IMG/VR virus record: IMGVR_UViG_2778261154_000009
Span: 1 to 7,277 of that record
Strand: one strand, 5' to 3'
Length of the DNA: 7,277 nt
Source of the DNA: a virus
Taxonomy: Duplodnaviria; Heunggongvirae; Uroviricota; Caudoviricetes
Positions within the stretch are counted from its first letter, which is position 1. The number at the start of each line of letters is the position of its first letter. Positions 1-7,118 of the stretch are shown here, in pieces. Made by a program: the position numbers and the translations under genes. Under the pieces are notes generated by a model. The model searched no databases. It was not told the origin of the DNA and was given only the letters and a program-made list of their open reading frames with translations.

Positions 1-161
1 CATCTCAGTAATACGGGAATACATTGAGATTTTCTACAATCGTCAGCGTCGTCACTCTCGTCTGGGGAATATCTCCCCGGCAGCCTTCAGGGAAAAATAT
101 CATCAGATGGCTGCTTAAAAAAAGAACAAATGGTAGTGTCCGCTATTGCCAGTACACCTCA
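1..161 (+). mobile_element. IS3-family insertion sequence, 3' (right) end only; element continues upstream of the window
   Basis: Frame-2 ORF reads to a stop at 116-118. Downstream, the reverse complement of 131-161 reads TGAGGTGTACTGGCAATAGCGGACACTACC, which has the TGA start and GGACAC core I associate with IS3-family terminal inverted repeats. Right boundary (about 161) is from memory and approximate. Confidence 0.6.
2..118 (+). CDS. IS3-family transposase OrfB, C-terminal 38 codons (5' partial)
   Basis: Translation of 2-118 gives ISVIREYIEIFYNRQRRHSRLGNISPAAFREKYHQMAA then stop. The FYNxxRxHSxLGxxSP motif is the characteristic C-terminus of IS3-family DDE transposases. Exact IS species not assigned. 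Confidence 0.8.
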   Translation: MSVIREYIEIFYNRQRRHSRLGNISPAAFREKYHQMAA

Positions 162-305: not shown

Positions 306-830
306 TTAAATACCGGCATCCTGTTCAAACGGAATAATAGAAAAATCTTCAATGCCTGATTTAACTGTAATTCCGGCGACACCTGCGACTGCTTTCGGCT
401 CCAGTAAAATCGCTTCCTTGTTGATTTCCTGTTTCGTGCGAATAAAGCGTTGAAGGCCAAGACGCTCCAGTGTTTCCATCACCGCATCCACACCGCGAAT
501 ACTTACTGATGGTGGGCGCTGACGCCATGACACATCACCGGTTACCAGGTTTGCCGTCTTCACCTTGCCGCCGTTCGTCAGTTCGTCACGGTTCGCTTCA
601 CACCATCCCTGAACGCCTTTTGAAAGGGTTTCGATACTGGTTTTAAGCGGTGCAATCTGTGAGGCGTATTTCTCCGTAATCTCAGCGATAGCGTCATTCA
701 TTTCCGTTTCAAGTCGTGCTGCTTCGCGTTGCAGGTCCCCAATCCGGCGGATATCACATACCACGGCATCGCGGGATTGCGGAACATAAGCCGCTGCGGC
801 GTTCCTGATTCGTTTTGCGGGTTTAGCCAT
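306..830 (-). CDS. gam: Host-nuclease inhibitor Gam (Mu Gam / Ku-like DNA end-binding protein), 174 aa
   Basis: Full ORF with SD AGGAG 9-10 nt upstream of the ATG at 830-828. Sequence (MAKPAKRIRNAAAAYVPQSRDAV...GIEDFSIIPFEQDAGI) and length match Mu-family Gam as I recall it. Confidence 0.9.
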   Translation of the reverse strand: MAKPAKRIRNAAAAYVPQSRDAVVCDIRRIGDLQREAARLETEMNDAIAEITEKYASQIAPLKTSIETLSKGVQGWCEANRDELTNGGKVKTANLVTGDVSWRQRPPSVSIRGVDAVMETLERLGLQRFIRTKQEINKEAILLEPKAVAGVAGITVKSGIEDFSIIPFEQDAGI

Positions 831-848
831 AAATAAAGCTCCTGTTAA

Positions 849-1136
849 TTAATATTCACTGTATACAATGCCGGATACAGCACGATTGCTTAATTCCATC
901 TTTTGGGCTATCACATGAATAGCCAGCCCTTCTTTATAAAGTTCACGGCATAAATATTTGTCGTGCTCACTGACCTGGTATGCACACAACGATATTCCGT
1001 GCCTTCTGGCATGTGCCTGTAGGGCGGTTGGGGCAACTTTCAGTTTTTTCGCCATTTCCTCGACGGTCATTTTTCCGACACTGGCTTCGATAAATTCCCG
1101 GTCTTCGCGTGACCAGCGTTTACGATTACACGTCAT
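849..1136 (-). CDS. Hypothetical early protein, 95 aa from ATG 1136 (99 aa if GTG 1148), putative HTH DNA-binding
   Basis: ORF in operon orientation. N-terminal segment WSREDREFIEASVGKMTVEEMAKKLKVAPTALQAHARRHGIS has an HTH-like pattern. The upstream gene's TGA (1151-1149) abuts this start. No family assigned. Confidence 0.6.
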   Translation of the reverse strand: MTCNRKRWSREDREFIEASVGKMTVEEMAKKLKVAPTALQAHARRHGISLCAYQVSEHDKYLCRELYKEGLAIHVIAQKMELSNRAVSGIVYSEY

Positions 1137-1148
1137 TCCGGTCACCAC

Positions 1149-1568
1149 TCAGTACAACAGAGGCTCGCGCAGTGATGCCGGAATATGCCGCAGCGATAAC
1201 TGAACCGCTTTCAGGACAAGCGAGGAATAACAGCAGCGCGCCCAGCCTTTTGCCATTAACCGGTAATCGCGCCAGATACGCTGCCACATTTCACGGGCTT
1301 TCGGGTCTGACGCGCAGATGTATTCGCGGTCCATGACGTATTCCCATAAATCCACATTGAAGGCATTGCCAAACGTAATGGCGCGGAATACCGCCTCTCC
1401 GCAATAACGCGCACAAATGCTGTAATGGTCAAATGCAATCAGGTAAGTCTTTTCGCCATACCCCTCAACTTCGCGCGCACAAATAAATTCGCGCAAGTCT
1501 CCACCATTGTTATTACGCTCTTTAATCCGAATTAATGCCCGGATTTCATTTCGGATTTTGACGTTCAT
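1149..1568 (-). CDS. Hypothetical early protein, 139 aa, Cys/His-containing
   Basis: ORF with SD AAGGAA 9 nt upstream of the ATG at 1568-1566; the longer track ORF starting at 1592 lacks an SD. Contains HYSICARYC (H-x3-C-x3-C) plus further Cys residues. No recognisable family. Confidence 0.6.
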   Translation of the reverse strand: MNVKIRNEIRALIRIKERNNNGGDLREFICAREVEGYGEKTYLIAFDHYSICARYCGEAVFRAITFGNAFNVDLWEYVMDREYICASDPKAREMWQRIWRDYRLMAKGWARCCYSSLVLKAVQLSLRHIPASLREPLLY

Positions 1569-1582
1569 TGTCAGCGTTCCTT

Positions 1583-1846
1583 TCAGTGGCATGTTTTTTC
1601 AACAGCCATTTCAGTGACACGGCCACCGGTGATGACACTATCGTTTTTCAAAATCTCGATAGCTTCATGGGCTGACTCATTAATTATTTTCTGGCTTTTA
1701 TTAAGCACCAGTAACGCCACCATGCCAGCAAGTGTACCCTCATCACCGTCCAGTTCCGCACTACCGTCCACCGCAATGCTGGTGCGCAAATTCAGTCCTT
1801 TAATTCCAGATACTGTATTTTTAATTTCAATAATTACTTTTGCCAT
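1583..1846 (-). CDS. Hypothetical early protein, 87 aa, acidic
   Basis: SD GAGGAA 8 nt upstream of the ATG at 1846-1844; the track ORF begins at an upstream GTG (1861) without an SD. Stop overlaps the next gene start by 10 bp if 1592 is used, consistent with operon packing. Confidence 0.6.
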   Translation of the reverse strand: MAKVIIEIKNTVSGIKGLNLRTSIAVDGSAELDGDEGTLAGMVALLVLNKSQKIINESAHEAIEILKNDSVITGGRVTEMAVEKTCH

Positions 1847-1878
1847 TTTGTTATTCCTCACAAATAAATAAGCCGTTA

Positions 1879-2106
1879 TTAACGCCAGATAATCTGGCAG
1901 CCATTAAGGCGGGCCGTCCATACTGAACGGGCAACCCCTGATTTATGCTCCATAATCCTGACAGCGTTTCTGACCAGCTCCGGTGGTGGGCAGGTGATTT
2001 CAAGTACCGGACGCGCCACGCCGAGATATGATTCATTTACGTGACTCCCGTGCGCCTGTAACCAGTTCTGCGCATCCGTTGCCATTTTTATATTTCGTGA
2101 CATCAT
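1879..2106 (-). CDS. Small early protein in the position of Mu kil (immediately downstream of B), 75 aa
   Basis: SD AAGGA 9 nt upstream of ATG 2106-2104, 16 nt after the B stop. Kil assignment is positional only; I cannot verify sequence similarity, so no symbol is given. Confidence 0.6.
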
Positions 2107-2121
2107 GGTTTATGTCCTTTA

Positions 2122-3072
2122 CTACCAGTTCAGTAACCTGGGGTTGCTGTAAGCCTCCTTAAAAGCCGCTTTAATGTGACTTTTATTCAGGGATGTGCCT
2201 GCACCTTTTGCCGCCAGCCACGCATGATTCAGTGTGTGAGTTAATACACGCAATCCCCCGGGCTTTTCGGCTACCCTCATCAGCAGGTCCAGCTCATCTT
2301 CCTGTGTTACTCCCCATGCTTTGGCTACAGCCATCACATCGGTCTTTTTTACTTTGCGCAGTTGTTTTGTCATGGCAAAACGGCTGAACAGACGGGCCAG
2401 TTCATCAGTCCCACGACGGGTGGCATCCGCCATCTGTTTCGGGTTGCCAATTAAAACCATCCCCACGCCAGTGGCATCCTGAATGGCGCGTAATTGCTCC
2501 AGACCATCCACACTTAAGTGATCAGCTTCATCAATAATCAGAAGGGGGTTAACACGGCCACTGGTTTCTTTACCACCACCCAGTTTTCTGCGAATGGCGC
2601 GGGTTATATTCCCCTTATTTCTTCCCGGATTATTAATTTCCAGCGCATATGCTATTTCAAGGAGGCATTCCGTTACGCTCGAATGTGCCGGAGCAAGAGT
2701 CACCATCCAGGCATTAGCTGTCCTGCGACAATATTCCCGGGCAGCAAAGGTTTTTCCGACACCCGGTACGCCAACAACAACACTGATAATCCCGAGTGAG
2801 CGCACTGTTTTAAACAGTTCATGCAAATCACAAAATGTCTGGGTCTTCACAACGCCGGGGGTACCTGACAAATTCTGCCCTTTCTGCCAGACCCGATACC
2901 ATTCCTGTAATTTGTCATACATGCCTTCAACATTGCCTCTGTACTTTCCTTTACGAAGATCAGAAAGTGTTGCCGGAGACATTCCGGCTTCATCAGCAAT
3001 ATCTTCCTGAGACTTGTCGCCCTCGTTAATCAAAGCGTTAATAGTGTTGAAAACATCATCAATATCAGTCAT
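2122..3072 (-). CDS. B: Mu B-like transposition ATPase (target DNA activator), 316 aa
   Basis: Walker A GVPGVGKT and Walker B LLIIDEADHL; N-terminal HTH-like segment (DEAGMSPATLSDLRKGKY); SD GAGGAA 6-7 nt upstream of ATG 3072-3070; located directly downstream of the transposase gene. Confidence 0.9.
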   Translation of the reverse strand: MTDIDDVFNTINALINEGDKSQEDIADEAGMSPATLSDLRKGKYRGNVEGMYDKLQEWYRVWQKGQNLSGTPGVVKTQTFCDLHELFKTVRSLGIISVVVGVPGVGKTFAAREYCRRTANAWMVTLAPAHSSVTECLLEIAYALEINNPGRNKGNITRAIRRKLGGGKETSGRVNPLLIIDEADHLSVDGLEQLRAIQDATGVGMVLIGNPKQMADATRRGTDELARLFSRFAMTKQLRKVKKTDVMAVAKAWGVTQEDELDLLMRVAEKPGGLRVLTHTLNHAWLAAKGAGTSLNKSHIKAAFKEAYSNPRLLNW

Positions 3073-3147: not shown

Positions 3148-5244
3148 TCAGGCCAGCGGATCATCTTCTTCCTGCATGGCAAAAAGTTTTTGCATCCCCA
3201 GCCGGAAATCGCGTTCAAATTCTTCGTCATGCTCTTCTTCATATTTCGGTTGCTGAACTGCCACCACATTACCAACCGGGCGATAAACATTACTCAGCCA
3301 GGGTTCAGCCTGTTTGTGTTCCAGAATCTGAATACCTTCATCTTCAGCATCACGAATTTTTTCCTCAGCGCGTTTGCGCATTCCTTTAATACGCTGCTGT
3401 TGTTTGTGATATTCAGCACTGACAGCAAAGGCTGCGCGTTTATTGCCGTTCCATATCGCCTCACAGATAAAGCTGCCGTCCTTGCGACGTACCGTAATTC
3501 GCTCGGCGTCATGAATGTCATAACTGATAAGCACTTTGCGACCGTGTTCGTCACGCAACTCCGGCGCGTAGTAAATATTGTTCAGCCACTGAATTTCGCA
3601 GCGTCTTACCGGTCGTTCCACCATTGGGCGGAACATGTCGCGCAGCTCAAGATCACTCAGCCACTCAATTTCGGTGTCTTCTTCTGCCAGGCGTTTTTTT
3701 CTGAACTCTGTCGGGCTGTAATGCCGTCCGTTCGGTTTCATCGGCAGCTCAGAATGCGGGCGGTTGTTGTACCATTCCACGCCTTCACGAATAGCCTCAA
3801 TAAGCTCCGCCCACGATGGCAGCTCGCGCATTGCCGCTTTCTGGCGGTCGTTCAGAGGCTTGTCCTGTTGCAGGGCGTTAAACGCTGAACGCAGATCACG
3901 GTTAAGTACACGCAACGATTCCCGGTCAGCACCCTTGCCAAAATAGGTGCGATACCTCCTGGCTATACGCATCGGCAGTGTCCGGTTCAGGCGTTCAATA
4001 ATGCCGCGTCCCTGTGGATTACCGGCAATACCGGTAGGGTGTTTAATCCCCAGGCGTGGCAGAATACCCACGACCTCTTTGTCCAGCATGTCAGCCGTTT
4101 CACCGGAACCGTTATCCGAGTAATACAGGAACGGTTTTCCGTGGTTGCGAATGCCGTGCTGTATCGCACCGGCAACGGCGAACACGTTTTCGGCAAGGTC
4201 AAGACTCCAGCCAACAACAAACCGTGTTCCACCATCGATCACAAACGTGACTTCCGGTGAGAATGGACGCCCGTGGATCGGATGCGCACATTTCAGCTTC
4301 ATACCGTGACCGTCACCAATCCAGACATAATTCACCGGCATAGCTGTCCAGTCGCGGCGGGTGAATCCTTCAAGCTGACGGTATTCACTGCCGGTAACGC
4401 GCCCTTTTTGTTTCACCACTTCCGGCAGTTTTTTCATGGCATACCGGACAACATCATAGGAAGGCATCACCTCCAGCATGTACGGTTCGTCCGCATGGCG
4501 ACGCTGCCATTCTGCGACAAAATCCTCGTAGGCTTCTGACATGGGTCTGCCGTTCACCTGGCGATACTGCGCCAGAAATTCAGGCAGCCAGCTGATTTCT
4601 TCCGGTTTTATTTCGTCGCGTTTTCCCGGTGCCAGTAACAGCAGCCGTTCGGCGGCGTTCTGCGACTGGTTGTATTTCAGAACCCACTGGTAAAGTGGAT
4701 CGCGGCTGATAGTACGATTAGCGCCACGTTTTGCATTGGCGTTAACTGCGGCCTGTTGCAGGCGCTCCGGCAGCTCACCTTTACGGGCTTTTTCAACAAG
4801 AAAGTTAATGGCTTTCAGTCGCCCGAGGTTACCGGCGCTTTCCAGCTTCAGCACTTCCACCACCAGCGCAGCTCTTGCTTCAGATACCCGGCGCTGGTTT
4901 TCGGTCAGCGCATTCAGGCGTTCTTCCATCAGTTGTGGAGAACCGCGATATGCTTCGATTGCCTGGACAGCGTCAGGATTGCGTGTTTTTCTGGTAACAG
5001 CTTTCACTTCAGAAACATTGTTCTCTGTAGCCACCAGCTGTTCCACATAGCGTTCACGCAGTGCCTTTCGTGTTATTTCAGGCAGACAATCAATGTGGTA
5101 CTCAATGGCTTTTGTGCCTTCCCGACGGCGACTAACGTCACCAAGATCACGAGAAAAACGCTGTAACGCCTGTCGGATGCCTTTTGTGGTGGCTGGCATT
5201 CCTGGTACGCCGAGCAGGTCATTTACGGTAACGTACGACTGCAT
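3148..5244 (-). CDS. A: Mu A-like DDE transposase, 698 aa from ATG 5244
   Basis: N-terminus (LLGVPGMPATTKGIRQ...GTKAIEYHIDCLPEITRKAL) resembles the MuA enhancer-binding winged-helix domain. DDE core candidates WIGDGHG, YYSDNGSG and GIIERLNR. Start at 5244 chosen for SD AGGAAGG; the 721-aa track ORF start at 5313 has no SD and overlaps ner. Confidence 0.9.
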   Translation of the reverse strand: MQSYVTVNDLLGVPGMPATTKGIRQALQRFSRDLGDVSRRREGTKAIEYHIDCLPEITRKALRERYVEQLVATENNVSEVKAVTRKTRNPDAVQAIEAYRGSPQLMEERLNALTENQRRVSEARAALVVEVLKLESAGNLGRLKAINFLVEKARKGELPERLQQAAVNANAKRGANRTISRDPLYQWVLKYNQSQNAAERLLLLAPGKRDEIKPEEISWLPEFLAQYRQVNGRPMSEAYEDFVAEWQRRHADEPYMLEVMPSYDVVRYAMKKLPEVVKQKGRVTGSEYRQLEGFTRRDWTAMPVNYVWIGDGHGMKLKCAHPIHGRPFSPEVTFVIDGGTRFVVGWSLDLAENVFAVAGAIQHGIRNHGKPFLYYSDNGSGETADMLDKEVVGILPRLGIKHPTGIAGNPQGRGIIERLNRTLPMRIARRYRTYFGKGADRESLRVLNRDLRSAFNALQQDKPLNDRQKAAMRELPSWAELIEAIREGVEWYNNRPHSELPMKPNGRHYSPTEFRKKRLAEEDTEIEWLSDLELRDMFRPMVERPVRRCEIQWLNNIYYAPELRDEHGRKVLISYDIHDAERITVRRKDGSFICEAIWNGNKRAAFAVSAEYHKQQQRIKGMRKRAEEKIRDAEDEGIQILEHKQAEPWLSNVYRPVGNVVAVQQPKYEEEHDEEFERDFRLGMQKLFAMQEEDDPLA

Positions 5245-5245
5245 A

Positions 5246-5497
5246 TCACGACACCTTCCTGATAAATCCATCGTTACGATACCGGCTGGGCCAGATGATT
5301 TCTGGCGGTACACCTATAGCGTCAGAAATTACGCGTTCGTATTTTTTGTTTGGTGTGCGAACTACCGCTTTCAGTGAATCCTGAGCATAACCAGCATGGA
5401 GTGAAAGCTCCCGGAAGGAAGACCACCCGTTATCTTTGAGCGCCAGCTGAATCTTCAGCGAAGGCCAATCGCGGTCACTATCTTCTCTTTGTCTCAT
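5246..5497 (-). CDS. ner: Ner-like DNA-binding protein (Mu Ner / Nlp family), 83 aa
   Basis: Contains the Ner/Nlp signature (DWPSLKIQLALKDNGWSSFRELS...PEIIWPSRY); SD AAGGAAAG before ATG 5497-5495; stop TGA is 1 nt from the A start (TGATATG). Confidence 0.85.
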   Translation of the reverse strand: MRQREDSDRDWPSLKIQLALKDNGWSSFRELSLHAGYAQDSLKAVVRTPNKKYERVISDAIGVPPEIIWPSRYRNDGFIRKVS

Positions 5498-5586: not shown

Positions 5587-5629
5587 GGGTTCTTTGGTGT
5601 TTTTATGGTTTATTTTTTAATTTCATTAT

Positions 5630-5642
5630 TTATCAATGAATT
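5630..5642. promoter_or_regulatory. IHF consensus match (WATCAANNNNTTR)
   Basis: TATCAATGAATTA at 5630-5642, preceded by an A/T-rich tract, between the divergent repressor and ner starts. Mu has an IHF site in its operator region. Confidence 0.4.
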
Positions 5643-5661
5643 AGATAGAAAGGAACCAAGA

Positions 5662-6225
5662 ATGAGAAAAGCACCCCAAGGTTCTTTTCCTGCCGATGGA
5701 AAAGAACCGATTATCGAAAGAATCTTTAGGTTAGTAGAACGATACCCTTCAAGAAATGCGGCTGCTCGGGCATGGGGGATCAATGAAGGCACTTTAAAAA
5801 ATTATTACAACAGGCGGGATTACGCACCGATACCACGCCCGCATCAGTTAAAAAAGATAGCAGAAAGCGAAAATGTTACCTTGGAATGGCTCATGACGGG
5901 AGAGGGTGATGTTGAACTAAAAGATTCCAAAGAACCCAAAAAAGAGAATGCGGATAATGTTGATGCTCAAATTCTAATGTTCTTGTCATTTCTTAAACCA
6001 CAAGAAAAACAACAAGTAGCTGATGTTCTTGGGAGAAAAGGAGCGGAGCAATTACTCATTCTTCTGGATGAGCACATCCAAGAGTTGCACGCTCTAGTTG
6101 GAGTTCGTAGAGCCATAGCGTTAAGCCTTGGTAATTTGCCAGACGAAAAGGTTAGAGAGATTTACGCGTTGTCCGAAGCTAAGGGCGATCACTTAAATCT
6201 ACCTCAGAAAGCAGCCAGCGCATAA
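5662..6225 (+). CDS. c: Prophage repressor (c-like): XRE-type HTH N-terminus with a Mu-repressor-like C-terminal region, 187 aa
   Basis: SD AAAGGAA 8-9 nt upstream of ATG 5662; the track ORF start at 5605 lacks an SD. N-terminus has an XRE/Cro-CI HTH pattern (SRNAAARAWGINEGTLKNYY...LEWLMTGEG). C-terminal segment resembles the Mu Repc C-terminal region as I recall it. Divergent from ner, in the Mu c position. Confidence 0.7.
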   Translation: MRKAPQGSFPADGKEPIIERIFRLVERYPSRNAAARAWGINEGTLKNYYNRRDYAPIPRPHQLKKIAESENVTLEWLMTGEGDVELKDSKEPKKENADNVDAQILMFLSFLKPQEKQQVADVLGRKGAEQLLILLDEHIQELHALVGVRRAIALSLGNLPDEKVREIYALSEAKGDHLNLPQKAASA

Positions 6226-6483: not shown

Positions 6484-6500
6484 AAATTACCTAGTCATAA

Positions 6501-7118
<618 letters not shown>

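Follow-up and report, generated by a model that had tools for sequence, protein, structure and literature searches.

The gp7, gp8 and gp9 genes of bacteriophage Mu have been annotated since the 1990s as E6, E7 and E8. Annotations of the kil-gam interval in Mu (AF083977), SfMu (NC_027382) and D108 (GQ357916) all feature four consecutive genes, namely gp6 (E5), gp7 (E6), gp8 (E7) and gp9 (E8). The gp6 protein carried by these three phages (Mu E5, phrog_3786) is a cysteine-rich polypeptide of 73-76 amino acids with a CxxC...CCPWC signature, and Mu gp9 and SfMu gp09 are annotated as 'transcriptional regulator, D5-like' (phrog_323).

A host-modifying phenotype has been published for gp7. Silas et al. 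designated as gnarl2 the accessory gene orf63, corresponding to NP_050611.1 and 'Mup07' at NC_000929 4784..5047 (bioRxiv 10.1101/2023.04.06.535777; Nat Commun 2025, PMC12373910). Heterologous expression of Gnarl2 raised T5 infection by 10^5-10^6-fold, turning otherwise resistant wild E. coli into sensitive strains, and transposon disruption of O-antigen genes reproduced the phenotype (PMC12373910). In the wild E. coli strains ECOR1 and ECOR22, Gnarl2 expression led to a subtle downshift of the O-antigen ladder on an LPS gel performed with n = 1 according to the figure legend (PMC12373910). AP-MS yielded no clear target, and Silas et al. suggest that the small Gnarl2 protein perturbs host O-antigen enzymes, possibly limiting superinfection or re-adsorption to debris (PMC12373910). 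The gene was also listed among conditionally lethal genes in the preprint (bioRxiv 10.1101/2023.04.06.535777). Our literature search returned no functional work on Mu gp8 or gp9.

Here, we examined three small open reading frames, ORF-a, ORF-b and ORF-c, lying between kil and gam in a window of 7,277 nucleotides (the whole stretch of viral DNA analyzed, from IMG/VR record IMGVR_UViG_2778261154_000009). An earlier note on this DNA had assigned none of them to a known family and regarded their location as the most plausible place in the window for undescribed functions. The first statement proved incorrect, as all three are orthologues of Mu gp7, gp8 and gp9, each with its own PHROG, and the second finds no support in genes of Mu that have long been catalogued. 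We consider it very probable that the three ORFs represent gp7 (Gnarl2), gp8 and gp9 of the early operon of a Mu/SfMu-like prophage, with the roles proposed below.

The early end of a Mu-type prophage

Gene calls combined with Pfam and PHROG matches showed that the window holds the left end of a transposable prophage of the Mu type, i.e. its early region, in minus-strand orientation. Its features are as follows (window coordinates, strand, description):

5605-6225, plus strand: putative repressor
5246-5497, minus strand: ner
3148-5313, minus strand: transposase A
2122-3072, minus strand: MuB
1879-2106, minus strand: kil, the upstream boundary of the cassette (phrog_2743, E 7e-42; 91-92% amino acid identity to Kil of Mu, SfMu and D108)
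1847-1878, minus strand: kil-gp7 spacer of 32 nt, the gp6 slot in Mu, SfMu and D108 (DNA alignment with these three phages and tblastn survey)
1583-1846, minus strand: gp7 orthologue (ORF-a), 87 aa (phrog_10252; 96.6% amino acid identity to Mu)
1149-1568, minus strand: gp8 orthologue (ORF-b), 139 aa (phrog_3690; 90.6% identity to Mu and 98.6% to SfMu)
849-1136, minus strand: gp9 orthologue (ORF-c), 95 aa, predicted tandem tri-helical HTH protein (partial phrog_323 match; 87.4% identity to Mu and 96.8% to SfMu)
306-830, minus strand: gam, host-nuclease inhibitor, the downstream boundary of the cassette (PF07352, E 2e-43; 91-97% amino acid identity to Gam of Mu and SfMu)

The gene previously placed at the kil position upstream of the cassette is hence a true Kil homologue, and the downstream neighbor is indeed Gam. 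Orthology of the three ORFs is supported by the nucleotide identity of the kil-gam region to SfMu (95.1%) and Mu (90.3%), the shared gene order and the 87-99% amino acid identity of each protein; the corresponding DNA identity to D108 is about 88.7%. The gene order, kil-gp7-gp8-gp9-gam, is the one annotated in Mu, SfMu and D108 except for gp6, which DNA alignment with the three phages revealed as cleanly missing, the kil stop codon being followed by the 32-nt spacer and then by gp7. Intergenic gaps within the cassette range from 11 to 32 nt.

Coding capacity and expression of the cassette

All three ORFs were recovered on the minus strand at the positions initially reported, and they are real genes under purifying selection: dN/dS values computed against Mu reached 0.29 for ORF-a, 0.11 for ORF-b and 0.17 for ORF-c, to be compared with 0.11 for gam. 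The lack of conservation and coding signal that would have marked them as spurious was thus not what we found. The claim that each gene is preceded by a Shine-Dalgarno sequence held for ORF-a (GAGGA) and ORF-b (AGGA), which both display good motifs, the 139-aa ATG of ORF-b being preceded by AAAGGAA; ORF-c displays only a weak GGTG. Alternative starts were considered for two of the genes. A 147-aa version of ORF-b from the ATG at 1592 is possible, but distant homologues begin at the methionine of the 139-aa version, and ORF-c could extend to 99 aa from a GTG at 1148, four codons upstream, as annotated in D108, but most family members begin at the methionine of the 95-aa version.

Strand scans of the cassette turned up neither an internal promoter nor a terminator; nothing resembling a sigma-70 promoter was seen on the coding strand, intrinsic terminators were lacking, and an Rfam scan of the region gave no match. 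The absence of internal promoters and terminators is consistent with co-transcription of gp7, gp8 and gp9 within a long early operon, ner-A-B-kil-...-gam. From this operon position and the established biology of Mu, the three products would be made only after induction or infection.

gp7 corresponds to Gnarl2

The gp7 protein is identical to Mup07 (NP_050611.1) at 84 of its 87 residues (96.6%; 95.4% for SfMu) and matches phrog_10252 over its full length (1-87/87, E 3e-55). The Mu CDS that matches the window ORF occupies 4784-5047, i.e. the coordinates of NP_050611.1, orf63 and gnarl2, and on the basis of these alignments we assign gp7 of the window as the orthologue of Mu Mup07/Gnarl2. The two proteins share their length, their PHROG and an early-operon position upstream of gp8, and differ by three substitutions (R18L, G70S and S74G in the allele described here) and by genomic context, the gene following kil directly in the window, where gp6 is missing. 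Of the three proteins, only gp7 hence has a homologue among Mu early proteins with a characterized role.

We propose that gp7 acts as a small non-enzymatic binder that would perturb host LPS/O-antigen biosynthesis or a chain-length factor. Such an action could lower re-adsorption or superinfection by LPS-binding Mu-type particles. The description of the protein as acidic is correct to a mild degree and not beyond, with 12 D+E vs 9 K+R, a pI of 5.26 and a net charge of about -3. A DNA-mimic anti-restriction protein of the Ocr/ArdA type was also considered for gp7 and ruled out by this mild charge; searches of Pfam, NCBIfam and PADLOC returned no match to the protein.

D108 harbors a different gp7 allele (phrog_2230), which occupies the same slot and shares the N-terminal MAKVI motif and a similar length (89 vs 87 aa), but belongs to a different PHROG and displays only about 19% global identity. 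Profile alignment of the Gnarl2-type and D108-type proteins by hhalign gave a probability of 68% and an E-value of 5e-5 over 62 columns, a signal partly contributed by the shared N-terminus. The D108-type and Gnarl2-type gp7 proteins are probably alleles of one family that have diverged.

gp8 defines an orphan family

Full-length similarity to phrog_3690 (1-139/139, E 1e-92) and the same length and position as Mu gp8 (E7) and SfMu gp08 (90.6% and 98.6% identity, respectively) leave no material difference between gp8 and its annotated counterparts. No match was found in Pfam, NCBIfam, PADLOC or a PDB sequence search; a katanin hit in the PDB (E 0.25) was judged to be due to chance, as was a VHS match in Pfam (E 0.056) when all family members were scanned. 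A word-indexed search of 5.8 billion proteins retrieved only orthologues of at least 69% identity, from Mu-type prophages of Enterobacterales, along with one frameshifted copy, namely P0024, whose apparent 40% match to gp8 does not make it a distant relative. An HMM search against 1.84 billion representatives identified two true distant relatives of 105-113 aa, IMG/VR added two more, and a scan of species-representative genomes found none. All four distant relatives are located between MuB and Kil in a second Mu-like clade featuring DUF3164 instead of Gam. On this evidence, gp8 appears to belong to an orphan family confined to Mu-like phages of enterobacteria.

The combined alignment delineates a conserved core at residues 1-108, in which E8, I9, A11, L12, R14, N19, G23, F28, I29, G38, I44, D47, Y49, A53, F70, D73, W75, R92, W95, R103 and G108 are invariant; none of these is a cysteine or a histidine. 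The H-x3-C-x3-C motif pointed out beforehand in this protein is present (H48, C52 and C56) and invariant among close Muvirus orthologues (at least 69% identity), but it is not conserved in the distant relatives: in the four homologues (P0059, P0060, L057 and L058), H48 is replaced by W or R, C52 by S, Q, Y or R, and C56 by E, M or G. gp8 has six cysteines, and C30, C85, C111 and C112 vary even among close orthologues. Since no cysteine or histidine is conserved across the extended family, the motif is confined to the Muvirus subfamily and does not define a metal site for the family as a whole. An AlphaFold2 (AF2) model built from an 11-sequence alignment was unusable (pLDDT 44). Judging only from its size, its optional presence and its neighbors, gp8 may most likely be a dispensable accessory factor that binds host proteins, rather than a metalloprotein, a suggestion we make with low confidence.

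gp9, a predicted tandem helix-turn-helix protein

The length and the position before gam of gp9 are those of Mu gp9 (E8) and SfMu gp09. The phrog_323 profile comprises 319 positions, of which gp9 covers 143-244 only, and this partial match indicates that the 'regulator' annotation has been transferred from larger proteins. A profile search delineated a family of proteins of about 95 aa, with identities down to about 37%, across Escherichia, Salmonella, Klebsiella, Raoultella, Citrobacter, Pluralibacter and Mangrovibacter. The gene lies directly after kil in Klebsiella prophages and in the distant clade from IMG/VR.

The AF2 model computed from 36 sequences (pLDDT 78) features two three-helix bundles, at residues 10-45 and 57-94, whose relative orientation is uncertain (pTM 0.43). 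Two consecutive three-helix bundles joined by a linker correspond to the tandem-HTH architecture of Tc3, Myb and Cbp1-like proteins. The HTH-like N-terminus previously noted in this protein is therefore one half of a predicted tandem, and the other half is the better conserved of the two: in the 36-sequence alignment, the C-terminal half (HDxxLCRELYKEGLxIxVIAEKMELSRRxVSNIVY) is far more conserved than the N-terminal one, and the motif HDxxLCRELYKEGLxIxVIAEKMELS is found at residues 58-83 of the window protein. The domain duplication emerges from the predicted structure alone, the internal sequence repeat being not significant (191 of 500 shuffles scored at least as high), and all matches to HTH families at the sequence level fell under the curated cut-offs.

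The predicted fold resembles the DNA-binding domain of GcrA (PDB 5yiu), but the corresponding PDB profile match has an E-value of 0.91. Membership of the GcrA family (PF07750) was rejected, as gp9 gives no significant sequence match and lacks the C-terminal sigma-70-interacting region. Compared with bipartite HTH proteins (Tc3 transposase 1u78, Myb R2R3 and Cbp1 2lvs), no significant sequence similarity emerged, the E-value being 0.005 for 2lvs. gp9 is thereby predicted to consist of two GcrA/Myb-like tri-helical HTH domains, with a GcrA-like fold but outside the GcrA family. Its most likely role would be bipartite DNA binding, either to regulate early development or as an architectural factor in it, and in both cases as a function intrinsic to the phage. 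DNA binding is deduced here from the modeled fold, and domains of this HTH-like type can mediate protein binding as well.

A frameshifted gp9, annotated as a pseudogene, was observed in an otherwise similar prophage of E. coli UMNF18 (L008, 1292-1580), indicating that the gene can be lost in resident prophages.

Variability of the kil-gam interval

The distribution of the cassette was surveyed by megablast in 5,426 complete E. coli genomes, a search in which alleles below about 85% nucleotide identity may be missed: 92 genomes gave a match to the kil-gam region, 90 to gp9, 56 to gp8 and 20 to the Gnarl2-type gp7. Among IMG/VR records, architectures were counted in 44 close loci carrying gp8, and were distributed as follows:

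gp6 present, D108-type gp7: 15 of 44 loci
gp6 present, Gnarl2-type gp7: 10 of 44 loci
gp6 absent, D108-type gp7: 9 of 44 loci
gp6 absent, Gnarl2-type gp7 (the arrangement of the window): 8 of 44 loci

Overall, gp6 is missing from 17 of the 44 loci, and the arrangement of the window is also found in other E. coli genomes. Further arrangements comprise kil-gp7(D108 type)-gp8-gp9(frameshifted)-gam, kil-gp7(D108 type)-gp9-gam and kil-X-gp7(D108 type)-gp9-gam, X being a member of phrog_1518 ('host nuclease inhibitor'), and gp8 is absent from prophages such as PSS-15 and KFu019.

The kil-gam interval is hence mosaic: gp6 and gp8 are each found in some prophages and missing from others, and gp7 comes in two allele types. 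These optional genes are set apart from a near-constant gp9. Such mosaicism supports the earlier view of an accessory region; the ORFs lie in the semi-essential or accessory part of a Mu-like early operon, and the interval differs between related prophages.

A 93-aa phrog_1518 gene replaces gp6 after kil in E. coli KFu019 (L010, 537-818) and in a second locus (L058, 3375-3656), again pointing to a slot in which host-directed genes are exchanged.

Alternative interpretations

The identification of the ORFs as gp7, gp8 and gp9 with the roles proposed above was weighed against other explanations. The cassette could consist entirely of counter-defense or host-takeover factors acting on host proteins, gp9 included, in line with the expectation, voiced beforehand, of host-modulating or anti-defense genes in this region. 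The mosaic interval, with its phrog_1518 gene in the gp6 slot of one prophage, and the host-directed nature of the neighbors Kil and Gam speak in favor of this explanation, and gp7 agrees with it through the published phenotype of its Mu orthologue Gnarl2. It is gp9 that fits poorly: of the 92 E. coli genomes harboring the region, 90 encode it, and a more distant clade of Mu-like phages has it at the equivalent position, as expected of a core gene rather than of an accessory gene that comes and goes. Such conservation speaks for a role intrinsic to the phage, and the predicted fold of gp9 is that of a bipartite DNA-binding HTH protein. Moreover, in the supplementary files of Silas et al. that were searched, NP_050611.1 was the only accession of the three proteins to be found, with none for gp8 or gp9. 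We thus regard the extension of host takeover to all three genes as rather unlikely. More specific, and in our opinion somewhat more doubtful still, is a joint proposal in which gp8 and its short kil-adjacent relatives would form an unrecognized host-takeover or counter-defense family with a new fold, and gp9 would be an undescribed early regulator, for example modulating the early-to-middle switch or binding specific sites in host DNA.

Two other explanations were considered. A small zinc-binding protein could be envisioned for gp8, which has six cysteines and shows no variation at H48, C52 or C56 among close Muvirus orthologues, but these three residues are all replaced in the four distant members, the other cysteines vary even among close orthologues, so that only three candidate ligands remain, and no zinc-binding family in Pfam, NCBIfam or the PDB was matched; we judge this function quite improbable. 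As for chance or decaying frames in a defective prophage, the damage to the prophage itself, where the IS600 end at 1-160 cuts the gene after gam, the missing gp6 and the frameshifted gp9 of UMNF18 could suggest such a scenario. Conservation refutes it: the three frames are intact, full length and 95-99% identical to those of the functional phage SfMu, their dN/dS values vs Mu are 0.11-0.29, and the same gp6-less architecture recurs elsewhere, both in E. coli genomes and among IMG/VR loci (8 of 44), so that decay appears extremely unlikely. The assignment to gp7 (Gnarl2), gp8 and gp9 of a Mu/SfMu-like early operon is therefore the reading we retain.

Significance

The three genes are already known members of the Mu family and, with 87-99% identity to Mu/SfMu genes, they carry little weight as a discovery and hold nothing surprising for a specialist. 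The window nonetheless supplies a naturally occurring Gnarl2 allele that has no gp6 beside it. What interest remains concerns gp8, an optional orphan with no conserved metal site, and gp9, a near-universal predicted tandem HTH protein, both encoded by a classic model phage; should the joint proposal of a new gp8 family and a new gp9 regulator be true, it would represent new biology in the best-studied transposable phage. More broadly, accessory genes are exchanged like modules in the kil-gam interval, and it would be reasonable to mine it for further host-modulating genes.

Ends of the prophage and immunity region

The first ~160-180 bases of the window (1-160) match an IS600 element (IS3 family) at 96-99% identity; the match covers the end of the element, with the C-terminal part of its transposase encoded on the plus strand. 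Between this match and gam (161-305), the gene following gam is cut by the IS600 insertion after about 21 codons (MNMKAYAYFKLSDAAANGEVYWQ...), indicating that the prophage is interrupted or truncated just downstream of gam.

On the other side, matches to E. coli mark the end of the prophage at 6499-6509, and its left end abuts a fragment of the host gene astE, encoding succinylglutamate desuccinylase (window ~6500-7118). The fragment begins at position 75 of the catalytic-domain profile, so that the prophage appears to be inserted within astE. The putative repressor (5605-6225, plus strand) is 206 aa long and gave no Pfam match at E-values up to 0.001. Only two complete E. coli genomes share the immunity region of this prophage at high coverage, and it hence seems to be of an uncommon immunity type among Mu-like prophages.
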